A stretch of DNA of 38,805 nucleotides from a virus (Duplodnaviria > Caudoviricetes). Location: IMG/VR virus record IMGVR_UViG_3300047565_000335, positions 1 through 38,805 of that record; one strand, 5' to 3'. The notes beneath the pieces are model-generated. The model searched no databases. It saw nothing but the letters and a program-made list of their open reading frames with translations, and was not told where the DNA came from. Shown here one piece after another: positions 17,267 to 35,245 of the stretch (positions are counted from its first letter, which is position 1; every line of letters begins with the position of its first letter). Both the position numbers and the translations under genes were made by a program.

Positions 17267-18178
17267 TTAAGCAGCGCAGGCTTTCATAGCAGCGGCATAA
17301 CCAACGCTATTTTTCACCATGTAGGCTTTGATTTTTTTGTCCATGGCCATAGACTCGTCTTCGCCTTCATCACCGTCGCCATCATCAGCCATGGCAAATT
17401 CAGCTTGGGGGTCTTCGCCCAAGGGCACCACCTTTTTAGCGATCGCCTGGGCTAAGAAAGCCACGGCAGCATTGCCACCGCTCTTGGGCTGGGCAAATTC
17501 AGCACTGAAGCTATCAATGGGTACCAGGGCAAGCTTGGTAAATACATCCACCAGGCCAGCTTGGTCAGCGGGAGCGATCGCGCCTTTGGCTACCAAATTC
17601 GAGACGATTGGGAGTACCTGTTTACTGGCCTCAAACTGGGCTTCTCTAGCCGCAAACTCAGCTTCCTTAGCCTTAATTGCCTCTTCTCTGGCTCTCAATT
17701 CTTCTTCGTCCATGCTGGTACCTGTAATTTGGATAAATGAAACTTTTTCGCCTTGGCTGAATTGAGCAGTAGGCAATTTTTCTAAGGCCACCTGGTCGCT
17801 GCCAAAAAAGAAACCGACGTGATCGAATTCGATCCCATCAGTGCTGTTGGCTTTGTTGCCAGGTAAGCGAATCTTGGCGGAGATTTTGGGCTTGGTTTTG
17901 TTTACCAAACTTCGGAACCCGGCCTTAACTCCTTCGTAAGCAGCAGCCGCCACCCGTCCAGATGAGTCGATCGCTAGTTTGGTGACGTGGCCATAGTGTT
18001 CTTCATTGCTGGCAGGGTGGCCAATCACCAGCGGAATCTTGTGGCCAGATTCGTTAAAGTGCGCCACCGTCGCCACCAATTGGGCGCGGCTCACCGGAAC
18101 AACCTGCTGATGATAATCAACATGTCGCCCTGGGTAAAAAATCTGGATGGGTTTTAAGCCGTTCACTGGTTCAATCAC
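17267..18178 (-). CDS. Prohead protease/scaffold (Mu gpI-like); possible internal scaffold start at ATG 17713
   Basis: IQIFYPG.H, PLVIGHP, KISA and HVGFF motifs; coiled-coil acidic C-terminal half ending Y..KN.VGYAAA. Confidence 0.85.
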   Translation of the reverse strand: MIEPVNGLKPIQIFYPGRHVDYHQQVVPVSRAQLVATVAHFNESGHKIPLVIGHPASNEEHYGHVTKLAIDSSGRVAAAAYEGVKAGFRSLVNKTKPKISAKIRLPGNKANSTDGIEFDHVGFFFGSDQVALEKLPTAQFSQGEKVSFIQITGTSMDEEELRAREEAIKAKEAEFAAREAQFEASKQVLPIVSNLVAKGAIAPADQAGLVDVFTKLALVPIDSFSAEFAQPKSGGNAAVAFLAQAIAKKVVPLGEDPQAEFAMADDGDGDEGEDESMAMDKKIKAYMVKNSVGYAAAMKACAA

Positions 18179-19435: not shown

Positions 19436-20944
19436 TTAAGATCTCTGTTTTTTTAGATATTTAATTGTCAATTTAAAATGCTCTTTATCGGCATTCCACA
19501 GATGTAACATATTTTCTGGTGAATCAAAATGCTCAAACCCTACCGAAAGAACCTCTGTGAAAGAATCTTCGTAAATTTTACCCACATATTTATCAACAAA
19601 ATGATCAGGGTAAAATTTTTCCTCATCAGGGTGATCCCAACCATAAATTTCTCTGCCTGTTTGAAGCTCCCCAGTTGCTCTTGATTTCAGCCAATCGTTG
19701 CTTTCCTTTGAACCATATTCTAATTCCGCAAAATGAGCCATTTCATGAAAAATTGAGCTTTTACTAGCATCACCCACATTAATCCTACCTAATTCAAATG
19801 TCGCGGTAGGGCGACGGCCAGAATAAACAAATTCCCTCAAGTGATTAGCACCACCACCATTAGTTAGCTGGAAAAATTCAACAGCACTTTCTCGGATTTT
19901 ATTTCGGGATCTATCAACATTCATGTCAATTTTTCCAACTAATTTCATCGCCTCTTCTTGAGCCATCCCTGTATCAAGCAAGTTTTGGCGCAGTTGCTCC
20001 ATTATTTCTTTTTTTCTTGGCGTTTCCTTTCGTTTTTTATTCCTGGCATAGATCTCATCAATCTGATCTATGATTTCATCGCTGTTAGACCCTGGGGAAT
20101 TTAGCTTAGCCCAAAGCTCTTTAGTCGATTCTATTTCCTGTTTTTCTAATTCTTCGATCAGGTCATCTATGCTATCGGCTGCTCCTGTTCTAAGTTCGTC
20201 CTCTTGCAGATGCCAACGAGAATTATTAAGTACATAAGTTTTTCCATTTAAAATTTTGGTTTTGCCTTCAGGAATTTTGGCAAACTTGGCATCTACATAC
20301 AAACTGCCCCGCATCGCATCCTTCAAAGTCCGATCGACCTTCAACTGGTCAATTTTTTGCTCAATGTCGTCCCGATACAAAAAGCCTTCGTCTGGCTCTA
20401 GGTCAAATACCGAGAGCTTACCGCCGTTGCGTTCAAAGTCTCGCGGGGAAAGGCTGAAATACTGGCAGGTGCAACCAAATCCCGATGGTAGCGGCACCGT
20501 CACATCTTCAATTTTAAATATTTTGCGATCCATGGCTAAATGCTCTGGTCTAGGGTCAGAGCTATTGCCATGTCGCCATTGTAGATATGGGCGATCGGTA
20601 GCAGTTTCTTGCATCTGTTGCCAGCGCCCTAGACCGTAAGCTTGACGGATGTTTTGGTCATAAATTAATTGCGCGCGCCATGCCGATCGACCAGCCCAGC
20701 GATCGGATACTTTGGCAAACCGGGTAATAAAATCTTGGGCAGATTCCCCGGCTTCGATCGCTCTGCCCAAGGTGTCGTGGATGTCTTGGAGCAAAGCACC
20801 CTTAGCAGCGGCTACGGTGAAGTTAGCCAGCTGCTGGGTGCCTTGGCCATCTACCCAAGTGTCGGTATCTAGCCCGGTTTTCTGGGCGAAATAGTCGATC
20901 GCTTCTTGGGGTGTTAGCTGGTCATTTTGGATCTGAATCGGCAT
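19436..20944 (-). CDS. MuF (gp30) head morphogenesis protein fused to a C-terminal zincin metallopeptidase
   Basis: EAIDYF..K, FTVA, IYDQN...AY..GRW, RP.H, GFGC.C; C-terminal HEMAH (19733-19747) and TEVLSVGFE. Confidence 0.88.
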   Translation of the reverse strand: MPIQIQNDQLTPQEAIDYFAQKTGLDTDTWVDGQGTQQLANFTVAAAKGALLQDIHDTLGRAIEAGESAQDFITRFAKVSDRWAGRSAWRAQLIYDQNIRQAYGLGRWQQMQETATDRPYLQWRHGNSSDPRPEHLAMDRKIFKIEDVTVPLPSGFGCTCQYFSLSPRDFERNGGKLSVFDLEPDEGFLYRDDIEQKIDQLKVDRTLKDAMRGSLYVDAKFAKIPEGKTKILNGKTYVLNNSRWHLQEDELRTGAADSIDDLIEELEKQEIESTKELWAKLNSPGSNSDEIIDQIDEIYARNKKRKETPRKKEIMEQLRQNLLDTGMAQEEAMKLVGKIDMNVDRSRNKIRESAVEFFQLTNGGGANHLREFVYSGRRPTATFELGRINVGDASKSSIFHEMAHFAELEYGSKESNDWLKSRATGELQTGREIYGWDHPDEEKFYPDHFVDKYVGKIYEDSFTEVLSVGFEHFDSPENMLHLWNADKEHFKLTIKYLKKQRS

Positions 20945-20976: not shown

Positions 20977-21471
20977 CTACTCAAATTCGGCCTCAAAATA
21001 CCCTTGTAAACCAGCTAAGGTCAGGTGTTGATTCACTTCTTGGGCAAATTCAGCACTTTCTAGCTGGGGAAACATTTCAAAGATCGCTTCTTGAGCTGTG
21101 CCCAAATCATCGGCGGTGAATATTACATCCTTAATCTGGTCGAGCCACTTGCTGAACTGAGCATCACCGACGTTTTTGAGGCTGGCAATTACTGTTTCTT
21201 GGCCTTCGGGGTACTTCTCGAATTTGGCCTCTGGCTCTTTCACTTCACCGTAATTGGCCAGCTTAATAGCCACGCCAGTATCGGTGATTTTGATGGCCAA
21301 TACTTTGCCGCCATCTTGCCCGATCGCGATGATGTCACCGTTATCGTCAAATTTGGCGGCGCGAATGGCTTCCATCCCGTCACCATAGGGTGGGGATTCA
21401 CCAGGGGCGGCGGGGTTGTTTAAAAAGTTGAGAATGGCTGGGTAGCGATCGGGCGTGATGGTTTCGGGCAT
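20977..21471 (-). CDS. Head protein whose C-terminal half resembles the C-terminal helical domain of Mu gp29-type portals
   Basis: W.DQI...I..A.DL..A...I...FP.L....FA......L..A.L.G immediately before MuF; five A[KQE]F motifs. Confidence 0.6.
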   Translation of the reverse strand: MPETITPDRYPAILNFLNNPAAPGESPPYGDGMEAIRAAKFDDNGDIIAIGQDGGKVLAIKITDTGVAIKLANYGEVKEPEAKFEKYPEGQETVIASLKNVGDAQFSKWLDQIKDVIFTADDLGTAQEAIFEMFPQLESAEFAQEVNQHLTLAGLQGYFEAEFE

Positions 21472-21476
21472 GGGGT

Positions 21477-21638
21477 TTAGTTGGTTTTTGTCTTGGGCTG
21501 GTCGGTTTTGGTTTCCGGCAGCATTGAAGGATCAGAGTCTGGCGTTGTAGGTATTTTGTAAACACCATCTTTAAAGCTGTCATCTAAAATAAAGCTGCCA
21601 TCCGGCTGAAATCCGGTCTTTGTTTTATTGGTATTCAT
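21477..21638 (-). CDS. 53-aa ORF missing from the track (MNTNKTKTGFQPDGSFILDDSFKDGVYKIP...), candidate partner/immunity of the JAB protein
   Basis: ATG overlaps the end of the JAB gene and the ORF ends 5 nt before the next start, filling the gap exactly. Confidence 0.55.
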   Translation of the reverse strand: MNTNKTKTGFQPDGSFILDDSFKDGVYKIPTTPDSDPSMLPETKTDQPKTKTN

Positions 21639-22839
21639 GTTCTTTCCTGGTGTATTTGGCTCCGATTAAATCGGCATAAGAAGTCGCTAAATCGTGCCAG
21701 TAGTCTGCATTCATTTTATTCTGAAGCTTTTGGAATTCTTCTGGTGAATCCATTTGCTGAGAGTTATAAAGCCTCCGGCCACCTTGATGTTGCTGGGTAG
21801 CTTCAATCGTCGCAATCATTTTCTTAGCTGCCGAAAGGCTAGGCCAGCCATTGGGTGGACGCAAAATCGAATGTATGTATTTCCGGCTAATTGCTCTAAT
21901 TTCACTTAGATCAGCACCCACCGCAATCTCCAAATCATCTCTACTAAAAGAATTGCCACCACTACGAGTGTCAACAGCTTCAAAGTTCCAGCCGTCTGGG
22001 TGATTGTGGCTTAAAATGCCTGATGCCATCTGATTGACTTCTTCACTCGTGAAAGCGACTTGATCACTAGTTCCGTCTTTGGTGAAAGCTTTTTGACCGC
22101 GAAAATCCACCACCATGGCAGATTCAAAAGACTGCTTATATTTTTCTCTCTCAAAGGCATGAATAGCGGCTATTCCTGTCAATTCTTTTGATTGATTTAC
22201 CGATTTTTCAAACTGGGCATACTGACCATGCGGCTTTTTTAAAATCCCCTGATCGGGATGATAGAGAAAATCATGAATTTGCAGCTGGCTACTGCCTGCG
22301 CTGATTTTGATAGGGGAGTGGCTGACTTGGTAAGACTCCGCCGGGGAATCATAATTGGTGGTCACGCCGCCAGATAATACCGCCGAGCTACCAGCGCCAA
22401 TTTGAACCCGGTGGCCGCTGCCATCTGTTGTGATTTTAATGGTCTGGGGCGACCTGGTAATCTTCATGTCCCCCAAATCCAATGTATTTCCAGACTTGGT
22501 GATTTCGTGGCCACCATCTACCATTTTTAATGTGTAGGGTTTGGTTTTGGCAAGAGACTCCATCAGCTCTTTACGGGCTTGGCGATCTTCAGACCTGGTG
22601 ATTTTGTCTTCTGCTGCTGTTTCATCGCGATCGGCTTTTTCTAGGTTATTTTCCAACAGTTCATCTGTTTCAGTCGATCGCCAACGGCTGTCTTTGAGAT
22701 AGTAACTCTTGCCCTTAATTGTTTTGGTGGTACCTTCGGGGATTTTGGCAAATTCGGCCTTTTCTAATTCTGGTAGCAGGGTAGTCGCTGCAAAGTTAGC
22801 CGCCGTTTCTCTCAGGATGATTTCTAAATCTAAGGCCAT
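21625..22839 (-). CDS. Putative virion cargo protein with C-terminal JAB/MPN-like domain
   Basis: E...HNHP.G...SFS..D motif (HNHP at 21997-22008); N-terminal module shared with MuF; coupled to the portal stop. Confidence 0.72.
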   Translation of the reverse strand: MALDLEIILRETAANFAATTLLPELEKAEFAKIPEGTTKTIKGKSYYLKDSRWRSTETDELLENNLEKADRDETAAEDKITRSEDRQARKELMESLAKTKPYTLKMVDGGHEITKSGNTLDLGDMKITRSPQTIKITTDGSGHRVQIGAGSSAVLSGGVTTNYDSPAESYQVSHSPIKISAGSSQLQIHDFLYHPDQGILKKPHGQYAQFEKSVNQSKELTGIAAIHAFEREKYKQSFESAMVVDFRGQKAFTKDGTSDQVAFTSEEVNQMASGILSHNHPDGWNFEAVDTRSGGNSFSRDDLEIAVGADLSEIRAISRKYIHSILRPPNGWPSLSAAKKMIATIEATQQHQGGRRLYNSQQMDSPEEFQKLQNKMNADYWHDLATSYADLIGAKYTRKEHEYQ

Positions 22840-25580
22840 CAGTATTTACCCCCTTTGATAATCTCGGCTACCTGGCTGTATAGCTCTTTTTGTACCGCTG
22901 CCTGTTTCTCACCACCAGCCACCCGCAGAGCGGCGGCGTTCAGTGCTTTAGCGATCGGCCCCGAAGCATTTTTTAAACCATCAAAAACACCCATAGCTAC
23001 AGCGGAATCATCGGCGATCGCCTTAGATGCTGCCGAGTCAATTTGGTTATTGCCCCGCGCCAATTCTTGAGCCGATTTACTCTTAGCCACCAGGCCAAAA
23101 ATCCGCTTGTCTTTGCCCAGCTGGGAGCGGATGCCAGCCGCTAAACCAGCCCGTTCGATCGCGTTGGTTTTGGTTTCAAAGCTACCGCCAAATAAATCGA
23201 ATTGCTCAACTTGCTGGGTACTGCTGGCCTTCACCCCAGCGACTAGTTCCGCCAACACTCCATCATTTAATTTTTTGCCCTTTTTCTCGCTGAGTTTGTA
23301 TAGGTCGCGCTGCTGCTCTGGCTTCAGTCCAGCGTCCCCAATAATGGCGGCGCGTGCTTCGCTGAGGTCGCCCATCACGACTTTTTCAAACAAAGTCGGT
23401 TCCAGTTTCGCGATCGCAATCCCTTTTTGAGCAATCTGTTCGCGCATTGGGATGCCCTTAGCCTTCAGGTCAGCTTCACTTAATCCGGTATCTCGGAAAA
23501 ATTTAGCTGCGTCCAAGCCAGTGCCCCGGCCTTCGGCAATGTTGGTTAAGGCTCCGATCGCTCTGGCGTGGGCAGCGTCAGGGGCATCGATTACCCTGGC
23601 CGTTATCTTCTCAGCTCCGGCTCGGTTAGCCAGTGCTAGCCGGTTGTGGCCATTGATTACATAGAGTTGTTTATCAGCGGGGTCCCGCCAAACCTGTACC
23701 ACCCCGGCTAAGTTTGGATCATAGGTGCTGACACCAGATAAGCTGCCAACTTCCCCAGTTTTGGTATGCTCGCCAATTAGTTTGTATTGGAAACGTTTGG
23801 GATCGGCCTGAATATCTTTGGCATCAATTTCACCCACAAAACCCGGTTCTACTTTCAGCGCTGCTGGGCGCTGCTGGGCTTCGGCTAGGTCGGCTTTTAG
23901 TTTAGCTATCAGCGCTTTTTGCTTTTCACTAGCATCCTTATGGCAGGTTTTGCCACCACTGATACAAACTACCCCACAGCTAATATTTTGAGGTTGGCAT
24001 TTAGCCTTTTTCTTAGTCGCGCTGGTTTTCTTTACTGCTCCACCACGAAATTCTGCACTTTGGAATTTTTCCAGCAGCATTTCAGCCACTGGCAACAAAG
24101 GATCTTCAGCAGCCGCAAACTTAGCATTATCTAGCGCCGACTGTGCCGTCGGCGCGTCTAGTGGCGGCGCTGGCTCACCCGCTGGTTGCCCTAGTGCCCC
24201 TTCCCCACCACCCAAATTCTTAGTAATCGCCTCGATCGACTTATCCGGCCAACTTGGAAAAGCGCCCTTAATCATCCCAAATACTAGTTCTGGCTTCCAG
24301 CTACCCTGCTGGGCATTAGAGACGATCGACACCAGCGCATTGACCTGTTCACCATTTAGCTGAGTGAGCGCGTCATCAGCTTCGGGAATCTCATAGTTAT
24401 CACCATATTTCTGGGCGATCGCATCAGCTTTTAATTTAATCCCCAGGCCAGACAGCACTACATCGGTGTCGGCCTCGGCCTTGATGTCCTTGCTCTCGAA
24501 ATTCCGCCACACTTTGGGAATGGCCGCGCCGGGAAAATTCCATTCGGTGAGGTATCTCGCGATCGACTCATTGAAAGTCTGACACATCACATCGGAAAGC
24601 TGCTTGGCAAAAGCCAGCCCGATGTCTTGGTGTACTTCCGCTTGGGAGCGCGATGACCCATTATCAGTGGTCATGGTTTGACCATTGATGATTTTACTAA
24701 TGGCTGCGTTGCAGATATCCACCATTCCCTGGTAGTCGCTGCCGCCTGCTCGGGCTGCTTCAATCAGCTTAATTTCGGTGCCTTCCGGGCTGGATGTCCA
24801 GTCATCTTCACCAAAGGCTTCTAGCGCTTTTTCCAGGGCTTCAATATCGTCTTCTTGGCTACCTAGTGGGTAAGTGCCATGGCGATGGGGTTTAGCATAT
24901 TTTTCGAGGAACAGCACCCACCAGCGCATTCCTTGCCGCTTAAAAAAGGTTGGCCAGTATAACCAGTAGGCCAAGCCCCGCCCGTTGGGGTCATCTACCG
25001 AGTCACCGCCGATCGAGAATGTCCAGTATTTGTTAGGTAGCAGTTCGCCGCCGTTATAGTTCCGGTTGTTGCGCCAGCGGATTTCATTTTCATAAGTCCA
25101 TAAAAATCTTTTCCGACTTCTGACCAGCAAATCTTTTAAGACCACCCGATCGCCTGATAGCTCATACATGGCTTCAGCTACACTAAAGCCCCAGAACTTA
25201 CCCGCCGCCATCTTGGCACAGCGATCGTCAAAGGGAATATTCGTTAATTGCTGTTTGAGGTCTTCAGCGGCTTGGATATCGATCGGCTGGTCACCACCGG
25301 GCAACACCATGATTTCCCGGCTGATGATTTGGCTAATTAGTTGGCTTAAACCTGCTTCTACCTGGTCGTCTTGACGGACTGGCTCATAGAATTCTAAATT
25401 CCCTTTGCCCTTTCCTTTGAGGATCGGGTCAGTGCTGCCCAGTACATATTTATCAAGATAGGCACCCCAGAAATCAGCTCTTTTGGGGGTCTGCTCTTTG
25501 TTGATGACAGCTCTAGCGATCGCGGGCGGTATCGCTGCTTTCTGCTGTTTTTTGGCTTTAGATTGGGTCTGTGCTGGCAT
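22839..25580 (-). CDS. Portal protein (DUF935/Mu gp29) with C-terminal extension: Cys4 motif and ParB-like domain
   Basis: GFSVAE, P.GRGL...LYW..FFK, FLEKY..P...G.Y, ISKII.GQTMT..GSSRS.AEVH; extension contains DPKRFQY and VINGHNRLA. Confidence 0.9.
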   Translation of the reverse strand: MPAQTQSKAKKQQKAAIPPAIARAVINKEQTPKRADFWGAYLDKYVLGSTDPILKGKGKGNLEFYEPVRQDDQVEAGLSQLISQIISREIMVLPGGDQPIDIQAAEDLKQQLTNIPFDDRCAKMAAGKFWGFSVAEAMYELSGDRVVLKDLLVRSRKRFLWTYENEIRWRNNRNYNGGELLPNKYWTFSIGGDSVDDPNGRGLAYWLYWPTFFKRQGMRWWVLFLEKYAKPHRHGTYPLGSQEDDIEALEKALEAFGEDDWTSSPEGTEIKLIEAARAGGSDYQGMVDICNAAISKIINGQTMTTDNGSSRSQAEVHQDIGLAFAKQLSDVMCQTFNESIARYLTEWNFPGAAIPKVWRNFESKDIKAEADTDVVLSGLGIKLKADAIAQKYGDNYEIPEADDALTQLNGEQVNALVSIVSNAQQGSWKPELVFGMIKGAFPSWPDKSIEAITKNLGGGEGALGQPAGEPAPPLDAPTAQSALDNAKFAAAEDPLLPVAEMLLEKFQSAEFRGGAVKKTSATKKKAKCQPQNISCGVVCISGGKTCHKDASEKQKALIAKLKADLAEAQQRPAALKVEPGFVGEIDAKDIQADPKRFQYKLIGEHTKTGEVGSLSGVSTYDPNLAGVVQVWRDPADKQLYVINGHNRLALANRAGAEKITARVIDAPDAAHARAIGALTNIAEGRGTGLDAAKFFRDTGLSEADLKAKGIPMREQIAQKGIAIAKLEPTLFEKVVMGDLSEARAAIIGDAGLKPEQQRDLYKLSEKKGKKLNDGVLAELVAGVKASSTQQVEQFDLFGGSFETKTNAIERAGLAAGIRSQLGKDKRIFGLVAKSKSAQELARGNNQIDSAASKAIADDSAVAMGVFDGLKNASGPIAKALNAAALRVAGGEKQAAVQKELYSQVAEIIKGGKY

Positions 25581-25628
25581 TGGTGGCGGTGCCCTGGGAT
25601 GGCTTAAGTTTAGCAGGTTGGTTAGTTG

Positions 25629-27029
25629 TTAGTACCCGGCGTACTCGTTTTTTCGCTCTTTCTGGCGGCGACCACTAGCTCGAACTACTGGCAACGCATC
25701 ACCCGCGCCCAGGGCTTTATACACAGCCAGGGTCAAAGCCGAATATTCATCAGCGTGGCCACCATTACGGCGCTCGGCTACAAACCTAATATTCCCGCTG
25801 GCACTGACAACACGCACCACCGATCGCAAGGCTTCTTCTATGCGTTCAATCTGCTGGGCAGCGCGTTGGTCACTGGGCATCGGTGGCAACAATAGCCGCT
25901 TCTGTTCTAGCTCGGCCTTAGTCTGGACGGCCATGGCATTTTTATTATTGAGGTTAAAAATCACGCCTTCTACGCGGGTAGAGCCATATTTTTTAATATA
26001 TTTCTCAGTGCTGGCTTCCCCCATGCCGCCCTGGTCGATCGCCATGCCTTCAAACTTATATTTCTGGTACAGGCTATCAATCACGCCTTCTTGCTCTTCA
26101 AAGTCCGCGCCTTGCAGCGTCACCACCTCCACCGTCCGCATCATCCGGCCATCTTTTTGCAGCACCCAAGCCACCCACCGATCGCCCCTTAAACCAATAT
26201 CATTACCTAAGAAAAATCTGGGCTTCAGGGTAGATATTTGATTGATACTCATCCGGGCTTTGCTGCCATCGATCGAGCATTCTGGCGACCTAGCTTTCAC
26301 CAGTAGTCCACCAGTCAGCCACTGGGTCACACCATCGACCCATTGCAGCATCATTTCTCGTTCCCACTTGTCGGAGTCGGACTGCTCTTTCTCCCGATCG
26401 ACATCATACAGCCGCCCTTCGGCCACAGCATCTAAGATGTTGACGATCGACTTACTCCACAGTGGCCAGCCTTTATAAACTTTCTCGTTGTGCACCAGCT
26501 TGTAAAACTGATTATCCCGATCGCCCCAGGGCGTACCCGAGACAATCATTTTAAATATCCCCCGCGTACAGTGGCGCAGGGCTTCATACATCTCCTTCCC
26601 GTCACTATGATGAGCCGCTTCATCCCACCAGACATTGGCCGTATAGCCCCGCGCGGCGGCTGGGCTGGCAGCCTGTGCCATAATCCGCTGGCGACCAATT
26701 CTAATTAAAAAGCGGGTGAAAATTTCCTTGCCGTCTGGTGTTCTAATTTCTTCTTCAATTACCCCAATCTCTTTCCCCAAAGCAAAAAAGACCTTACACC
26801 ACCTAGCCACCACGTCGATCGCTTCTCTTGCTTGGTCTCTGGTGGCGCTGGCAATTAACCAGCTCTCAGTCTGGCCTTTGGCTTCACTACGAAAGGTTTC
26901 TAAAGCAATCTTGGCGGCAATTACAAAGGTTTTGCCATTGCCCCGCGCCCACTGCACCACAATATCGCGGTTATTATTGGCAATTAATTCCCGCTGGGAG
27001 GGTCGAAAAAACTGAAGGCTAGGGGTCAT
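25629..27029 (-). CDS. terL: Terminase large subunit (Mu gp28-like)
   Basis: Walker A ARGNGKT; ARG....WWDEAA; SGTP; nuclease G.DIG...D, AIDQGGMG, GHADE; start placed at ATG 27029. Confidence 0.93.
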   Translation of the reverse strand: MTPSLQFFRPSQRELIANNNRDIVVQWARGNGKTFVIAAKIALETFRSEAKGQTESWLIASATRDQAREAIDVVARWCKVFFALGKEIGVIEEEIRTPDGKEIFTRFLIRIGRQRIMAQAASPAAARGYTANVWWDEAAHHSDGKEMYEALRHCTRGIFKMIVSGTPWGDRDNQFYKLVHNEKVYKGWPLWSKSIVNILDAVAEGRLYDVDREKEQSDSDKWEREMMLQWVDGVTQWLTGGLLVKARSPECSIDGSKARMSINQISTLKPRFFLGNDIGLRGDRWVAWVLQKDGRMMRTVEVVTLQGADFEEQEGVIDSLYQKYKFEGMAIDQGGMGEASTEKYIKKYGSTRVEGVIFNLNNKNAMAVQTKAELEQKRLLLPPMPSDQRAAQQIERIEEALRSVVRVVSASGNIRFVAERRNGGHADEYSALTLAVYKALGAGDALPVVRASGRRQKERKNEYAGY

Positions 27030-30077: not shown

Positions 30078-30485
30078 TCAAGGCAGATTGCCAAAAAACA
30101 AGACTTTGCCAAAAGCCAGCAGCAAGCCGCCGACCACTGTTACAGTCAAACCCACGGCCACGCCACGATTCAAGAATTCTTTGGTGGTGATGCGCAGGTC
30201 GAGGTTTTTGGTTTTTTCCTCGAATTTGGTATCTAGGGCTTTAAGTTCCGATCGCAGTTCCCTGATATCGCCTTTCAGGTCTGCTTCTACAGTTTTAAGT
30301 TCCGATCGCAGTTCCCTGATATCACCTTTAACATCAGTAAAACCCACTCTGACTTCTTCTTTGAGGTCAGAAATCTGTTTTTGGGTGTTCAGGGTGAGAT
30401 CGGATATCTGCTTTTGAGTAGCAGCATTGCCAGCAGTGATTAAATCTTTGAGCTGCTGGAGGTCGGTATCGGTGATAGTAGACAT
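30078..30485 (-). CDS. Coiled-coil repeat protein with C-terminal transmembrane helix; paralog of 2072..2413
   Basis: Same first 27 aa as the paralog; KGDIRELRSELK twice; hydrophobic C-terminus. Confidence 0.75.
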   Translation of the reverse strand: MSTITDTDLQQLKDLITAGNAATQKQISDLTLNTQKQISDLKEEVRVGFTDVKGDIRELRSELKTVEADLKGDIRELRSELKALDTKFEEKTKNLDLRITTKEFLNRGVAVGLTVTVVGGLLLAFGKVLFFGNLP

Positions 30486-32852: not shown

Positions 32853-33580
32853 TTGGTGATAAGCTCCAGTATTTTGGCAATCTGTGGGGTTGGTTGGTTG
32901 TGCAGTTCAGGGTTTTCAATCTCGGCAATGATGGCCAGCACTCGATCGCGCTGGGCAGCTGGCCACTGAATAGCAGCATCACCTAGGCCGATTTTCTTAC
33001 TGCCAGAAACAATCATCTTGGCCACTTTGGGGCTGACGGTGCCAGCTACTAGGGTTTTAATCAGGGCGGTGGCTCTAATTTGACCTGTAACATCTACCGG
33101 GTAGAAGTGGTCATCTAGGCTGGTCTTGGGGCGAATGGGCATCAGACTAATTTCTTCATCGGCTGCCGGGAGGCCAGAGCCAGCGGTCTGAAGTCCGGTT
33201 AGCCACTGCTGGTGGAGTTGCCTAGTAGTAATTTCGTTGGCGTTGGCTATGGTTCTTACTCCGCCAATTTGCCGAAGGGATGCGGCAGCGTAGCCGCTGA
33301 TGGTGATTGTTTCGGTTCTGCCTGTGGCTACTGCCATGATTCTTTCCCAGTCGTCGGTGGGGTTAATGCCTGCGACGGCTTGGAGTAAGTCAGAGGGTTT
33401 GGGGAAGCGATCGGTGGCGCAGCTCCAAAATGATTCTTCAAATTGTTTCTCAGAGACCGAGTTTATGCAGCCAATCCACCCTTTTAGTAAAGCTTCAGAG
33501 TAGGGTTTTCCATGTACTTCACAAGCCGATTCTAAGTAGCTTTTCAAAAGTTCTTTATCAATCATTTTAAATATCCTCAT
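32849..33580 (-). CDS. Replication partner (helicase loader/P-like protein)
   Basis: FPKPSDLL motif after a helical N-terminus; directly downstream of the initiator. Confidence 0.55.
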   Translation of the reverse strand: MRIFKMIDKELLKSYLESACEVHGKPYSEALLKGWIGCINSVSEKQFEESFWSCATDRFPKPSDLLQAVAGINPTDDWERIMAVATGRTETITISGYAAASLRQIGGVRTIANANEITTRQLHQQWLTGLQTAGSGLPAADEEISLMPIRPKTSLDDHFYPVDVTGQIRATALIKTLVAGTVSPKVAKMIVSGSKKIGLGDAAIQWPAAQRDRVLAIIAEIENPELHNQPTPQIAKILELITN

Positions 33581-35081
33581 GCTCTAAATAAATGTCGTAT
33601 TCAGGGAAGTAGTAATTAGCCCAATCTTTTTCTACTTGGGTAATCTCTTCGCCAGCTTTTGCTCGGCGTGATAAATCTTTCCAATCCATTCGCGCCCAAG
33701 CTCTTTTTGTGGGTTTTCCATCTAGGCCGCAGTATGTTTTTTCGGCTGAATCTTGGGTGATTTTTATGGCTGTGCCCACCATTTCTTCTTGAGGTTTTGA
33801 CCGCCATTTGTCGGCATATTTCAGCACCCGATCGGGGGAGTCTACCAGCCAAGGCAGGTTTCTATTTCCAAACCCTGGTGTGGTATGCCAGTCCGAGCTA
33901 CTGACCCAGAGGGTGGCGCTGGCGATTACCAGCAAGAATTCTTCTTCAGGATTGGGCACCTCGTCGCTGACTAGCCGCCGGAATATTTTGTCCAAACTCA
34001 TGTACAGAACACTGCTGGGAGACTGCGGGGCGGTACCCCAGCTAGAGTGACGGGCTTGGCTGTAGGCCGCGATCGCTTGGTCTAGTAGCGGTTTACGGCT
34101 TTTCCAGCTGCCAGAAATCTTGAAGCGATCGCCCAGTGGATCTGCTCCGCCGCTAAATCGGGCTGTAAGACCGCTTGAACTTGGGCTAATAGGTTTTGGT
34201 ACTTCGGCAGGGGTGAAGGCGGCTTCTACCCCCGAAATTTTGGCGGCGGCTGGCGGAATATTTGTCTCTTCAAGATTTGAATTGCTTGTAGAGGATTTCT
34301 GGGTTGTTTCTGCTGGGCTGCTTAGATTTTGTTCTGAGTTCCGGAAAGTCTGTGCCTGTGTGCCTATGGGTTGGCTCGGACAGTCCTGTAAGGCTGTTTC
34401 CGGTTCCGGATTCTGGTAGGTCGTTGCTTTGCGAAGCGGCTCTATGTCGGTATCTTGCCCTCTGTCAGTGGCTGTTTCCGGATTTTCCGGTTCAAAAGAT
34501 TTTGAATCACATAAATACCCGCGCGCGCCTTCCGGATTCGTGTTTCGTGGATCTAATTCTTCTTTATATAATTCAGGGGATCTAATTTGTGGATCTGTGT
34601 GATCTACCCCCGGATCTGTGTGATCTACCCCCGGATCTGTGTGATCTACCCCCGGATCTGTGTGATCTACCCCCGGATCTGTGTGATCTATGTTCGGTAG
34701 CTCACGCAGATCTACCTTTTTTGATTCATCCGTACTAAAGACCCATTCGCTGGGCGGAGTCAATGTATAAAGAGCTGTGGTTCCTGGTCGCTTGGTTTTC
34801 TTGATGAGATTTTTTGATAACAAACTCCGAGAAGTTCGCTTGATGGTTCCAGCACTCATCTTGGTTTCGATCGCCATGTGATCAATCGATTCCCAACATT
34901 TTCCATCTACCGATCCCGCTCGTTTCATGATTTGCGCGTACAGCTTAAATTCATGTGGAGTTAATAAATTTACTAACTCGGCATCAATTTGCACAAAAGG
35001 GCGACAAGAATCGTTTCTAACTTCTCTTTTGCGACCTTGATAATTTGGATTGCTTCGATTATTTCTTTCAGGATTAGACAT
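33567..35081 (-). CDS. Phage replication initiator (lambda O-like, N-terminal wHTH, internal iterons)
   Basis: L...EFKLY......G.CW.S...MA....MS..TI.R....L....LI; repeat-containing linker; likely start ATG 35081. Confidence 0.8.
   Translation of the reverse strand: MSNPERNNRSNPNYQGRKREVRNDSCRPFVQIDAELVNLLTPHEFKLYAQIMKRAGSVDGKCWESIDHMAIETKMSAGTIKRTSRSLLSKNLIKKTKRPGTTALYTLTPPSEWVFSTDESKKVDLRELPNIDHTDPGVDHTDPGVDHTDPGVDHTDPGVDHTDPQIRSPELYKEELDPRNTNPEGARGYLCDSKSFEPENPETATDRGQDTDIEPLRKATTYQNPEPETALQDCPSQPIGTQAQTFRNSEQNLSSPAETTQKSSTSNSNLEETNIPPAAAKISGVEAAFTPAEVPKPISPSSSGLTARFSGGADPLGDRFKISGSWKSRKPLLDQAIAAYSQARHSSWGTAPQSPSSVLYMSLDKIFRRLVSDEVPNPEEEFLLVIASATLWVSSSDWHTTPGFGNRNLPWLVDSPDRVLKYADKWRSKPQEEMVGTAIKITQDSAEKTYCGLDGKPTKRAWARMDWKDLSRRAKAGEEITQVEKDWANYYFPEYDIYLEHEDI
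34591..34690. repeat. 21-bp tandem iterons, about 4.8 perfect copies; probable replication origin
   Basis: GGATCTGTGTGATCTACCCCC at 34591, 34612, 34633 and 34654, partial at 34675; adjacent AT-rich patch at about 34553-34590. Confidence 0.85.
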
Positions 35082-35245
35082 TTTCAAAATTCCATCTAAA
35101 TTGATTAATTTCTTGGTCAAACCGAGTTGCTTAAAATCCACACATTTAAAAGTTTTGCAGTGGATTTATTAGCACTCGGCCAAAATACTTAAAGCTGCTG
35201 TTTCAGCCTTATGGCGCAAGACGCGGGGCATCTTGCGCGTTACCG

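Follow-up and report, generated by a model that had tools for sequence, protein, structure and literature searches.

A ParB-like module fused to a Mu-type phage portal protein, with a predicted head-protease site at the junction

Effectors fused to portal and MuF proteins, and the related polyvalent proteins, are treated in two papers (PMC5512222; PMC9503650) whose available text lists PBECR, 2H, Nudix and ART domains and proposes that such proteins are packaged and injected. We analysed a similar system in the virus record IMGVR_UViG_3300047565_000335 (Caudoviricetes), all 38,805 nucleotides of which are called the window below. It consists of a 913-amino acid (aa) open reading frame (ORF) at 22839-25580 (minus strand, as are all features of the head-gene region given here), in which a Mu-type portal runs into a Cys4 motif and a 339-aa module with a predicted ParB/Srx fold. 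As in the portal-fused effector class, a head protein carries a non-structural domain that relatives exchange. The available text of the two papers names no portal-ParB fusion and neither a Cys4 nor a KxxEG tag (the architecture files lay outside the comparison); it proposes self-processing by a metallopeptidase, where the window system instead has predicted head-protease sites, and it calls cyanobacteria poor in such proteins. Our preferred reading, to which we give a probability of about 50%, is that the ParB-like module would be cut from the portal at the tetrapeptide SAEF, be held in up to 12 copies in the head, be injected, and bind and coat the incoming DNA.

Three described systems come closest. 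DdrB-like ParB domains appear in the available text of both papers, and peptides of phage P1 DdrB (PF18763) were found in virions, so that this protein is head-packaged (table of PMC9024508, the part available). P1 DdrB and the module share the ParB/Srx fold with its conserved Arg and a late-gene context; unlike DdrB, the module has a helix-turn-helix (HTH) domain and a helical tail, no profile match, and no Tyr-bearing inserted helix. The CTP-dependent ParB clamps (Spo0J, Noc, KorB, PadC) combine a nucleotide fold, an HTH domain and a C-terminal region and are the best structural matches, but they are only 13-20% identical to the module, which has altered Box II and Box III residues, no ParA-binding motif and a virion context. 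Finally, the portals of phages Mu (gpH/gp29) and B3 belong to the same family as the window portal and have a motif, repeated in the protease-scaffold, that stands once before a homologous C-terminal domain. In Mu, where the motif is AALSA-like, and in B3 this tail is a small helical domain, which the window has as a separate gene (20977-21471).

A survey of PF02195 fusions (PMC12704722) does not use the words 'portal', 'MuF' or 'capsid' in the available main text, and the module does not match PF02195. The literature search, which did not extend to the supplements of PMC5512222 and PMC12704722, found no description of the module on a portal or of the tags. The loading strategy is known already; for the ParB family, its clamp-like build and a portal slot matched to the protease, the literature searched gave no precedent.

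Fusion, fold and family of the module

The ORF contains no stop or frameshift. Its portal core (PF06074, Portal_Mu) spans aa 63-393 (24402-25394; Pfam E 2.6e-86), and the portal model matches the JBD30 and Mu portals (E 1.7e-13 and 1.5e-11); the module follows the Cys4 tag in frame with it. A contig of run X1 covers 22500-25700 and one of run X2 covers 22500-25149, across the junction, both without differences from the window, although this is a contig-level comparison and both runs may be the source of the window DNA; contigs of run X5 hold pieces of the region only. Among 119 other proteins (from the best 120 of 315 matches) there are at least 32 portal fusions of the module, 25 with PF06074, five with PF05136, one with PF06381 and one with PF04860. 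At least 25 other Mu-portal fusions, 46-81% identical over the extension, occur in viral and genome contigs. That two genes were joined by assembly error or read-through would be consistent with the uncertain independence of X1 and X2, but the homologous Mu-portal fusions rule it out and we regard its probability as negligible. Because homologous portal fusions recur and two contigs are unchanged across the junction, the fusion is real, as had been claimed from sequence alone.

The extension (aa 512-913) was modelled with AlphaFold2 from an alignment of 77 sequences (mean predicted local distance difference test score, pLDDT, 92.4). The model shows, in order, a cysteine-bearing hairpin, a helix (aa 552-570; 23871-23927), a ParB/Srx nucleotide-binding fold (aa 578-684; 23529-23849) with the motifs FQYK, NGHNR and NIAEG, a helical domain (aa 688-785; 23226-23519), and a tail of a beta-hairpin and helical bundle (aa 788-913; 22842-23219). 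Foldseek placed Noc, ParB and KorB on top (about 200 columns, E 3e-5 to 8e-4). The top group in VIA-align was PadC (Z 9.8, root-mean-square deviation [rmsd] 2.8, 94 aligned), KorB (Z 9.2, rmsd 12.4, 150 aligned), Pnob8 ParB, sulfiredoxin (Z 7.5, rmsd 3.1, 82 aligned) and Spo0J (Z 7.1, rmsd 4.4, 158 aligned). The alignments to Noc, Spo0J and KorB pass through the helical domain, and those to Spo0J, KorB and the ParB DNA-binding domain reach model residue 273, which places an HTH after the nucleotide fold. The feature search of the Atlas likewise gave ParB_N and HTH_ParB clusters, and profile alignment (hhalign) weakly supports the HTH. The module is accordingly predicted to have a ParB/Srx fold and a ParB-type HTH domain. 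The tail matched only generic helical bundles (VIA-align Z < 6); from its position we infer a role in dimerisation, and the module homodimer prediction scored 0.33 (mark 0.42).

This architecture bears out much of the sequence-only reading, which had picked out the ParB/Srx fold, an AEF, the cysteine motif and the motifs DPKRFQY (aa 593-599), NGHNR (aa 643-647) and NIAEG (aa 680-684), all of which lie where it put them. Its coiled coil shrinks to the single predicted helix at aa 552-570, and its helical tail of about 200 aa divides into the HTH domain and the hairpin with its bundle. The GxxR motif of the fold is likewise there (G644-H-N-R647), with G644, H645 and R647 at a rounded 1.0 of 233 aligned members. 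R647 is present in 233/233, and xGHxR in 124 of the 127 locus ORFs; the pocket motifs FQYK, NGHxR and NIAEG are all strongly conserved.

The DdrB-type label was not supported. PF18763 gave no profile match (E 0.01 against P0001 and 1 against P0002; P1 DdrB control E 2e-39). In a scan of 77 module members, neither it nor any other ParB family of Pfam was among the 25 of 70 families listed. Where P1 DdrB has about 30 extra residues with a Tyr (placed by eye), the model has a 3-residue loop, and hhalign gave the module and P1 DdrB a probability of 0.2% (a single-sequence comparison by a method that also missed the canonical ParB N-domain). Since the DdrB tests failed and the canonical boxes are altered, the module is a ParB-clamp-like build that belongs to neither named family. 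Pfam and NCBIfam give the extension no family name, and sequence searches against solved structures returned nothing real for it. A Ribosomal_L9_C match in 39/77 members fell below its cut-off and was taken as noise. A match of aa 567-901 to the 'portal' profile phrog_21 was set aside, because that profile has absorbed the module (at about 1000-1335) and so matches, and labels as portal, proteins that have none. The hexapeptide QFDLFG (23187-23204) sits at the predicted hairpin tip, with L-F/L-G conserved and the Gln not. We take QFDLF to resemble the DnaN clamp-binding motif; this function was set aside, as the strict form is in 34/147 members and on a predicted hairpin.

Several features set the module apart from the CTP clamps. 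With the register set by eye, Box II reads GHNR here and an invariant GERR in canonical proteins, and Box III reads T/Q-N-I-A-E (TNIAE in the window) where canonical proteins have E-N-x-x-R (ENLQR). With these residues altered, the chemistry of the module may differ from that of the CTP clamps. According to the available text of PMC12704722, nucleotide choice is unpredictable from sequence, such orphan proteins binding ATP, CTP or GTP. No ParA-like ORF occurs in the window or in 124 module loci, and the ParA-binding motif [LFI]G[KR]G[LFI] was not seen on reading the extension. No match to the parS consensus was found at up to three mismatches, and the module's own site may be a different one.

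The module is matched by 2,806 clusters (at 50% identity). Besides the four portal families its carriers include MuF proteins, helicases, methylases and giant multidomain proteins, as well as a tape-measure-like protein. It also lies in a large gene of T7-like cyanopodoviruses, flanked by those for nozzle and fibre, in 17 Prochlorococcus P-SCSP1 records and in a T7-like phage that is uncultured (two of these 18 records were opened, and internal-protein status is judged from gene order only). In cultured Prochlorococcus phage P-SCSP1u (L001, 6633-14324) and an uncultured relative (L002, 6450-10904) this is a giant late protein (2,563 aa in P-SCSP1u) annotated 'hypothetical', which the available text of the P-SCSP1u paper does not discuss. 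The T7-like and tape-measure copies that were read have neither a Cys4 nor a KxxEG tag upstream. In nearly all matches listed, the HTH domain and helical tail accompany the fold, making a single 330-aa unit. For the Mu-portal-borne copies, a quick tree built from 68 chosen rows requires at least seven label changes on starred branches, although the label 'no Pfam' may in some rows stand for a portal that was cut off or missed. Near-identical modules are found on a portal and a non-portal carrier (P0014 and P0013). On these distributions the module is mobile, and a head or virion marker is present in 89/124 module loci and in 62 of the 81 that are at least 12 kb long. Six proteins (P0011, P0012, P0122-P0125) have two tandem ParB modules, which could form a single-chain dimer. 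A distinct ParB domain of PF02195 type is portal cargo in P0270 and stands beside the module in P0133.

Could the module be clipped and injected but degrade or sense a nucleotide, or nick DNA, against the host? Cargoes found elsewhere in the same portal slot are enzymes (kinase-like, HExxH, HNHP), the pocket residues are near-invariant and differ from those of CTP clamps, and the available text of PMC5512222 argues for such activity in DdrB-like domains. The module family is not of DdrB type, however, and the HTH and tail that travel with the fold would be needless for a free nucleotidase. We therefore consider an enzyme of this kind unlikely. As the HTH domain and tail have been retained, binding and coating of the incoming genome is our best guess and ranks ahead of a nucleotide-destroying or nicking enzyme.

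The junction, its tags and the exchangeable slot

Between portal and tag, a three-helix extension (aa 410-456; 24213-24353) that is also found in cargo-free relatives leads into a linker (aa 457-511; 24048-24212) where two tetrapeptides, NAKF (24117-24128) and SAEF (aa 508-511; 24048-24059), are candidate protease sites. In the full-length model both lie in stretches of pLDDT < 50. Motifs of the type A[EQK]F occur 16 times in the 2,286 aa of five head ORFs versus 6 times in the 9,404 aa of 36 other ORFs, an elevenfold enrichment; none of 5,000 shuffles reached 16. Five A[EQ]F motifs are in the head-maturation protease-scaffold (phrog_976; 17267-18178), which has invariant H54 and S100, and the first of them directly follows the protease domain.

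The junction was then compared across relatives. For Mu-type portals, 46 linkers were examined (3 without a recognised tag were dropped and 9 were redundant), and 32 of the 34 that remained have [EQD][FY] within 28 aa before the tag (shuffled mean 9.2; 0/1,000). A phrog_976-type protease was directly seen on five Mu-portal-fusion contigs (the window, L084, L085 and the contigs of L004/L130 and L005/L131) and was assumed from portal type for the other linkers. Linkers from loci with a DUF2213 protease (20 examined, 2 without tag, 12 redundant) have R-x-D in 6/6 cases (1/1,000 shuffles), and R-x-D occurs 87 times in seven DUF2213 proteases against 20.8 expected. R[AG] is in 5/5 linkers from S78-protease loci (7 examined; 13/1,000 shuffles). 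The junction motif, judged from these linkers, is one that varies with protease family.

Portals without cargo have F[AS]E just before the C-terminal domain in 70/90 cases, and this domain matches both window gene 20977 and residues 448-511 of Mu gp29. In cultured phage B3, F[AS]E is present once in the portal and seven times in the protease-scaffold, and is absent from terminase, MuF and capsid. In Mu, gpI has eight copies of a motif of which gp29 has one, at 427 (a pattern chosen by eye). The virion structure lacks the final 124 residues of gp29, and in the available text the authors suggest possible cleavage by protease I (PMC11915804). Because the motif follows the protease family and repeats in its scaffold, and because the Mu portal is reported to lose the homologous tail (PMC11915804, available text), the module is likely clipped off, with SAEF most likely a head-protease site.

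Some points count against such a cut. The patterns were chosen after the sequences had been seen, and the linkers share descent, so that the shuffles overstate independence. An unbiased scan of about 400 pairs ranks A-x-F first, but with an uncorrected p of only 1.7e-4. Where the phrog_976 protease was directly seen, 3/4 loci fit the pattern (83/1,000 shuffles). Five of the six DUF2213 linkers read R-x-D-F, and this F may partly belong to the tag. The motif alone does not signify a cut, since A-K-F also occurs within the ParB fold itself, in one of its conserved helices (aa 692). The window protease has no detectable likeness to Mu gpI, and the available text of the JBD30 paper does not mention portal cleavage.

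If cleavage does not occur, the modules would stay attached, with twelve copies forming a ring around the DNA exit at the portal's inner side. The in-frame fusion in four portal families fits this. Yet protease-matched motifs stand exactly at the junction, in low-confidence stretches of the model, near-identical modules occur on portal and non-portal carriers (P0014, P0013), and unrelated cargoes fill the slot; we think permanent attachment improbable. It had been suggested that the module acts at the DNA exit. A role near incoming DNA is still a reasonable guess, but the module would not remain at the exit because AEF is most likely a head-protease site.

Directly behind the motif stands one of two alternative tags, Cys4 or KxxEG..SRW, which are found in 102/233 and 9/233 module-bearing proteins, respectively, and never together. 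The Cys4 tag of the window portal (aa 512-548; 23937-24047) is basic, with nine K/R and no D/E, and is a predicted beta-hairpin; its C-x6-C-x3-C-x6-C (aa 528-546; 23943-23999) putatively binds zinc. The Atlas gave no usable match to it, and the tag alone retrieved no phage record. Among the 22 closest portals, of up to 840 aa (P0237-P0258), 17 have a tag behind an [EQ]F-type motif, followed by cargo in 16 of them, and 5/22 do not have the motif and tag. The cargoes include kinase-like domains (3), the HExxH domain of the window MuF (3) and the HNHP domain of gene 21625 (2). The C-terminal slot of the portal is, on this survey, exchangeable among cargoes. The Cys4 motif and ParB-like domain are thus both present in the extension, as first described; on comparison, Cys4 is a swappable tag outside the ParB domain, in a slot that accepts many other cargoes. 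A third short motif, of W-x4-5-HPR type, follows aromatic/small residues in giant module-bearing proteins (L111, L113, L118, L119, L124, L126) and may be another tag.

A proposed route for the module

The portal ring starts head assembly, and its twelve C-termini lie inside. The fusion would therefore put twelve modules into the prohead, in keeping with the earlier proposal of some 12 copies loaded by way of the portal. A cut at SAEF|R (perhaps also at NAKF|A) during head maturation would quite probably free the cargo; the predicted product has 402 aa, 42 kDa and an isoelectric point (pI) of 9.5, with the tag at its start. Because the tag follows the cut and precedes unrelated cargoes, its action is likely to come after maturation: it would remain on the cargo and either anchor this to DNA or direct it towards the exit. 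The freed product is likely to stay in the head and then be ejected with the genome.

A clipped module might instead act in the particle only, condensing or ordering DNA in packaging or easing its release, and not be delivered. A basic product of pI 9.5 with a DNA-binding fold would suit such a role, and a 42-kDa protein, if folded, could pass out through the portal only by unfolding. Insertion of the module in tape-measure-like and T7-like late proteins and its company of host-directed enzymes nevertheless suggest delivery, and mature heads have no nucleotide supply; a role confined to the particle is in our view quite unlikely. We favour delivery: because the carriers of the module include proteins ejected by other phages, it probably does its work in the next cell. 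There, with odds slightly better than even, it would act as a nucleotide-gated clamp or coat on DNA, shielding or positioning the still unreplicated genome and doing so without any phage-encoded ParA. More broadly, and as a possible though doubtful extension, this large unannotated ParB family would be a virion-delivered clamp that is placed on unrelated carriers, released by a protease-matched cut, and closed on the genome before phage expression, the portal C-terminus being a carrier-site-tag-cargo slot.

Neighbouring genes, host and significance

Profile scans show that the 38.8-kb window encodes terminase, Mu-type portal, MuF, neck, protease, capsid, RecT, cytosine methylase and tyrosine integrase. 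Next to the portal is a second cargo gene (21625-22839) with a short leader, AEF, a KIPEG..SRW tag (22681-22746) and a C-terminal HNHP-motif domain, which is JAB-like by eye and portal-fused in relatives. The 164-aa gene at 20977-21471 has five A[EQK]F motifs and, over aa 96-162, matches the helical domain that ends ordinary Mu-type portals; the ParB module is itself found in relatives of the gene (P0013, P0015-17, P0030). The gene at 19436-20944 encodes MuF followed by AKF, a KIPEG..SRW tag (20213-20278) and an HExxH domain that is portal-fused in relatives. No HExxH was seen on reading the portal extension, whereas this adjacent MuF has one. The window thus has Cys4 on the portal and KIPEG..SRW in genes 21625 and 19436.

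A cyanobacterium is the likely host: GCGATCGC, known as HIP1, is present 29 times in the window, and close portal-module fusions come from records with the names Chamaesiphon, Chroococcidiopsis and Leptolyngbyaceae. A repeat search of the window found no telling repeat close to the head genes, and no RNA data set containing it was listed. Elsewhere, five to six tandem 21-bp repeats (34570-34695) lie within an ORF with a weak HTH_36 match (33567-35141, minus strand) and look like an origin of the iteron type within the gene for a replication initiator. A 92-nt inverted repeat (2072-2163 and 30394-30485) is 93% complementary, with 28 kb between the copies. At the contig end (205-1916), a resolvase with a MerR-type HTH is followed by TnpB, which we take to be an IS607-like pair.

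If the preferred reading is correct, ParB-type proteins would act in the first minutes of infection, beyond their part in segregation and gene regulation, and the family concerned is one that goes unnamed by Pfam and NCBIfam scans. A reason for the removable tail of Mu-type portals, a long-standing loose end, would also become testable. The predicted cut sites are exact, cultured B3 has the motif pattern and cultured P-SCSP1u the module, so that the first steps could be decided by proteomics.

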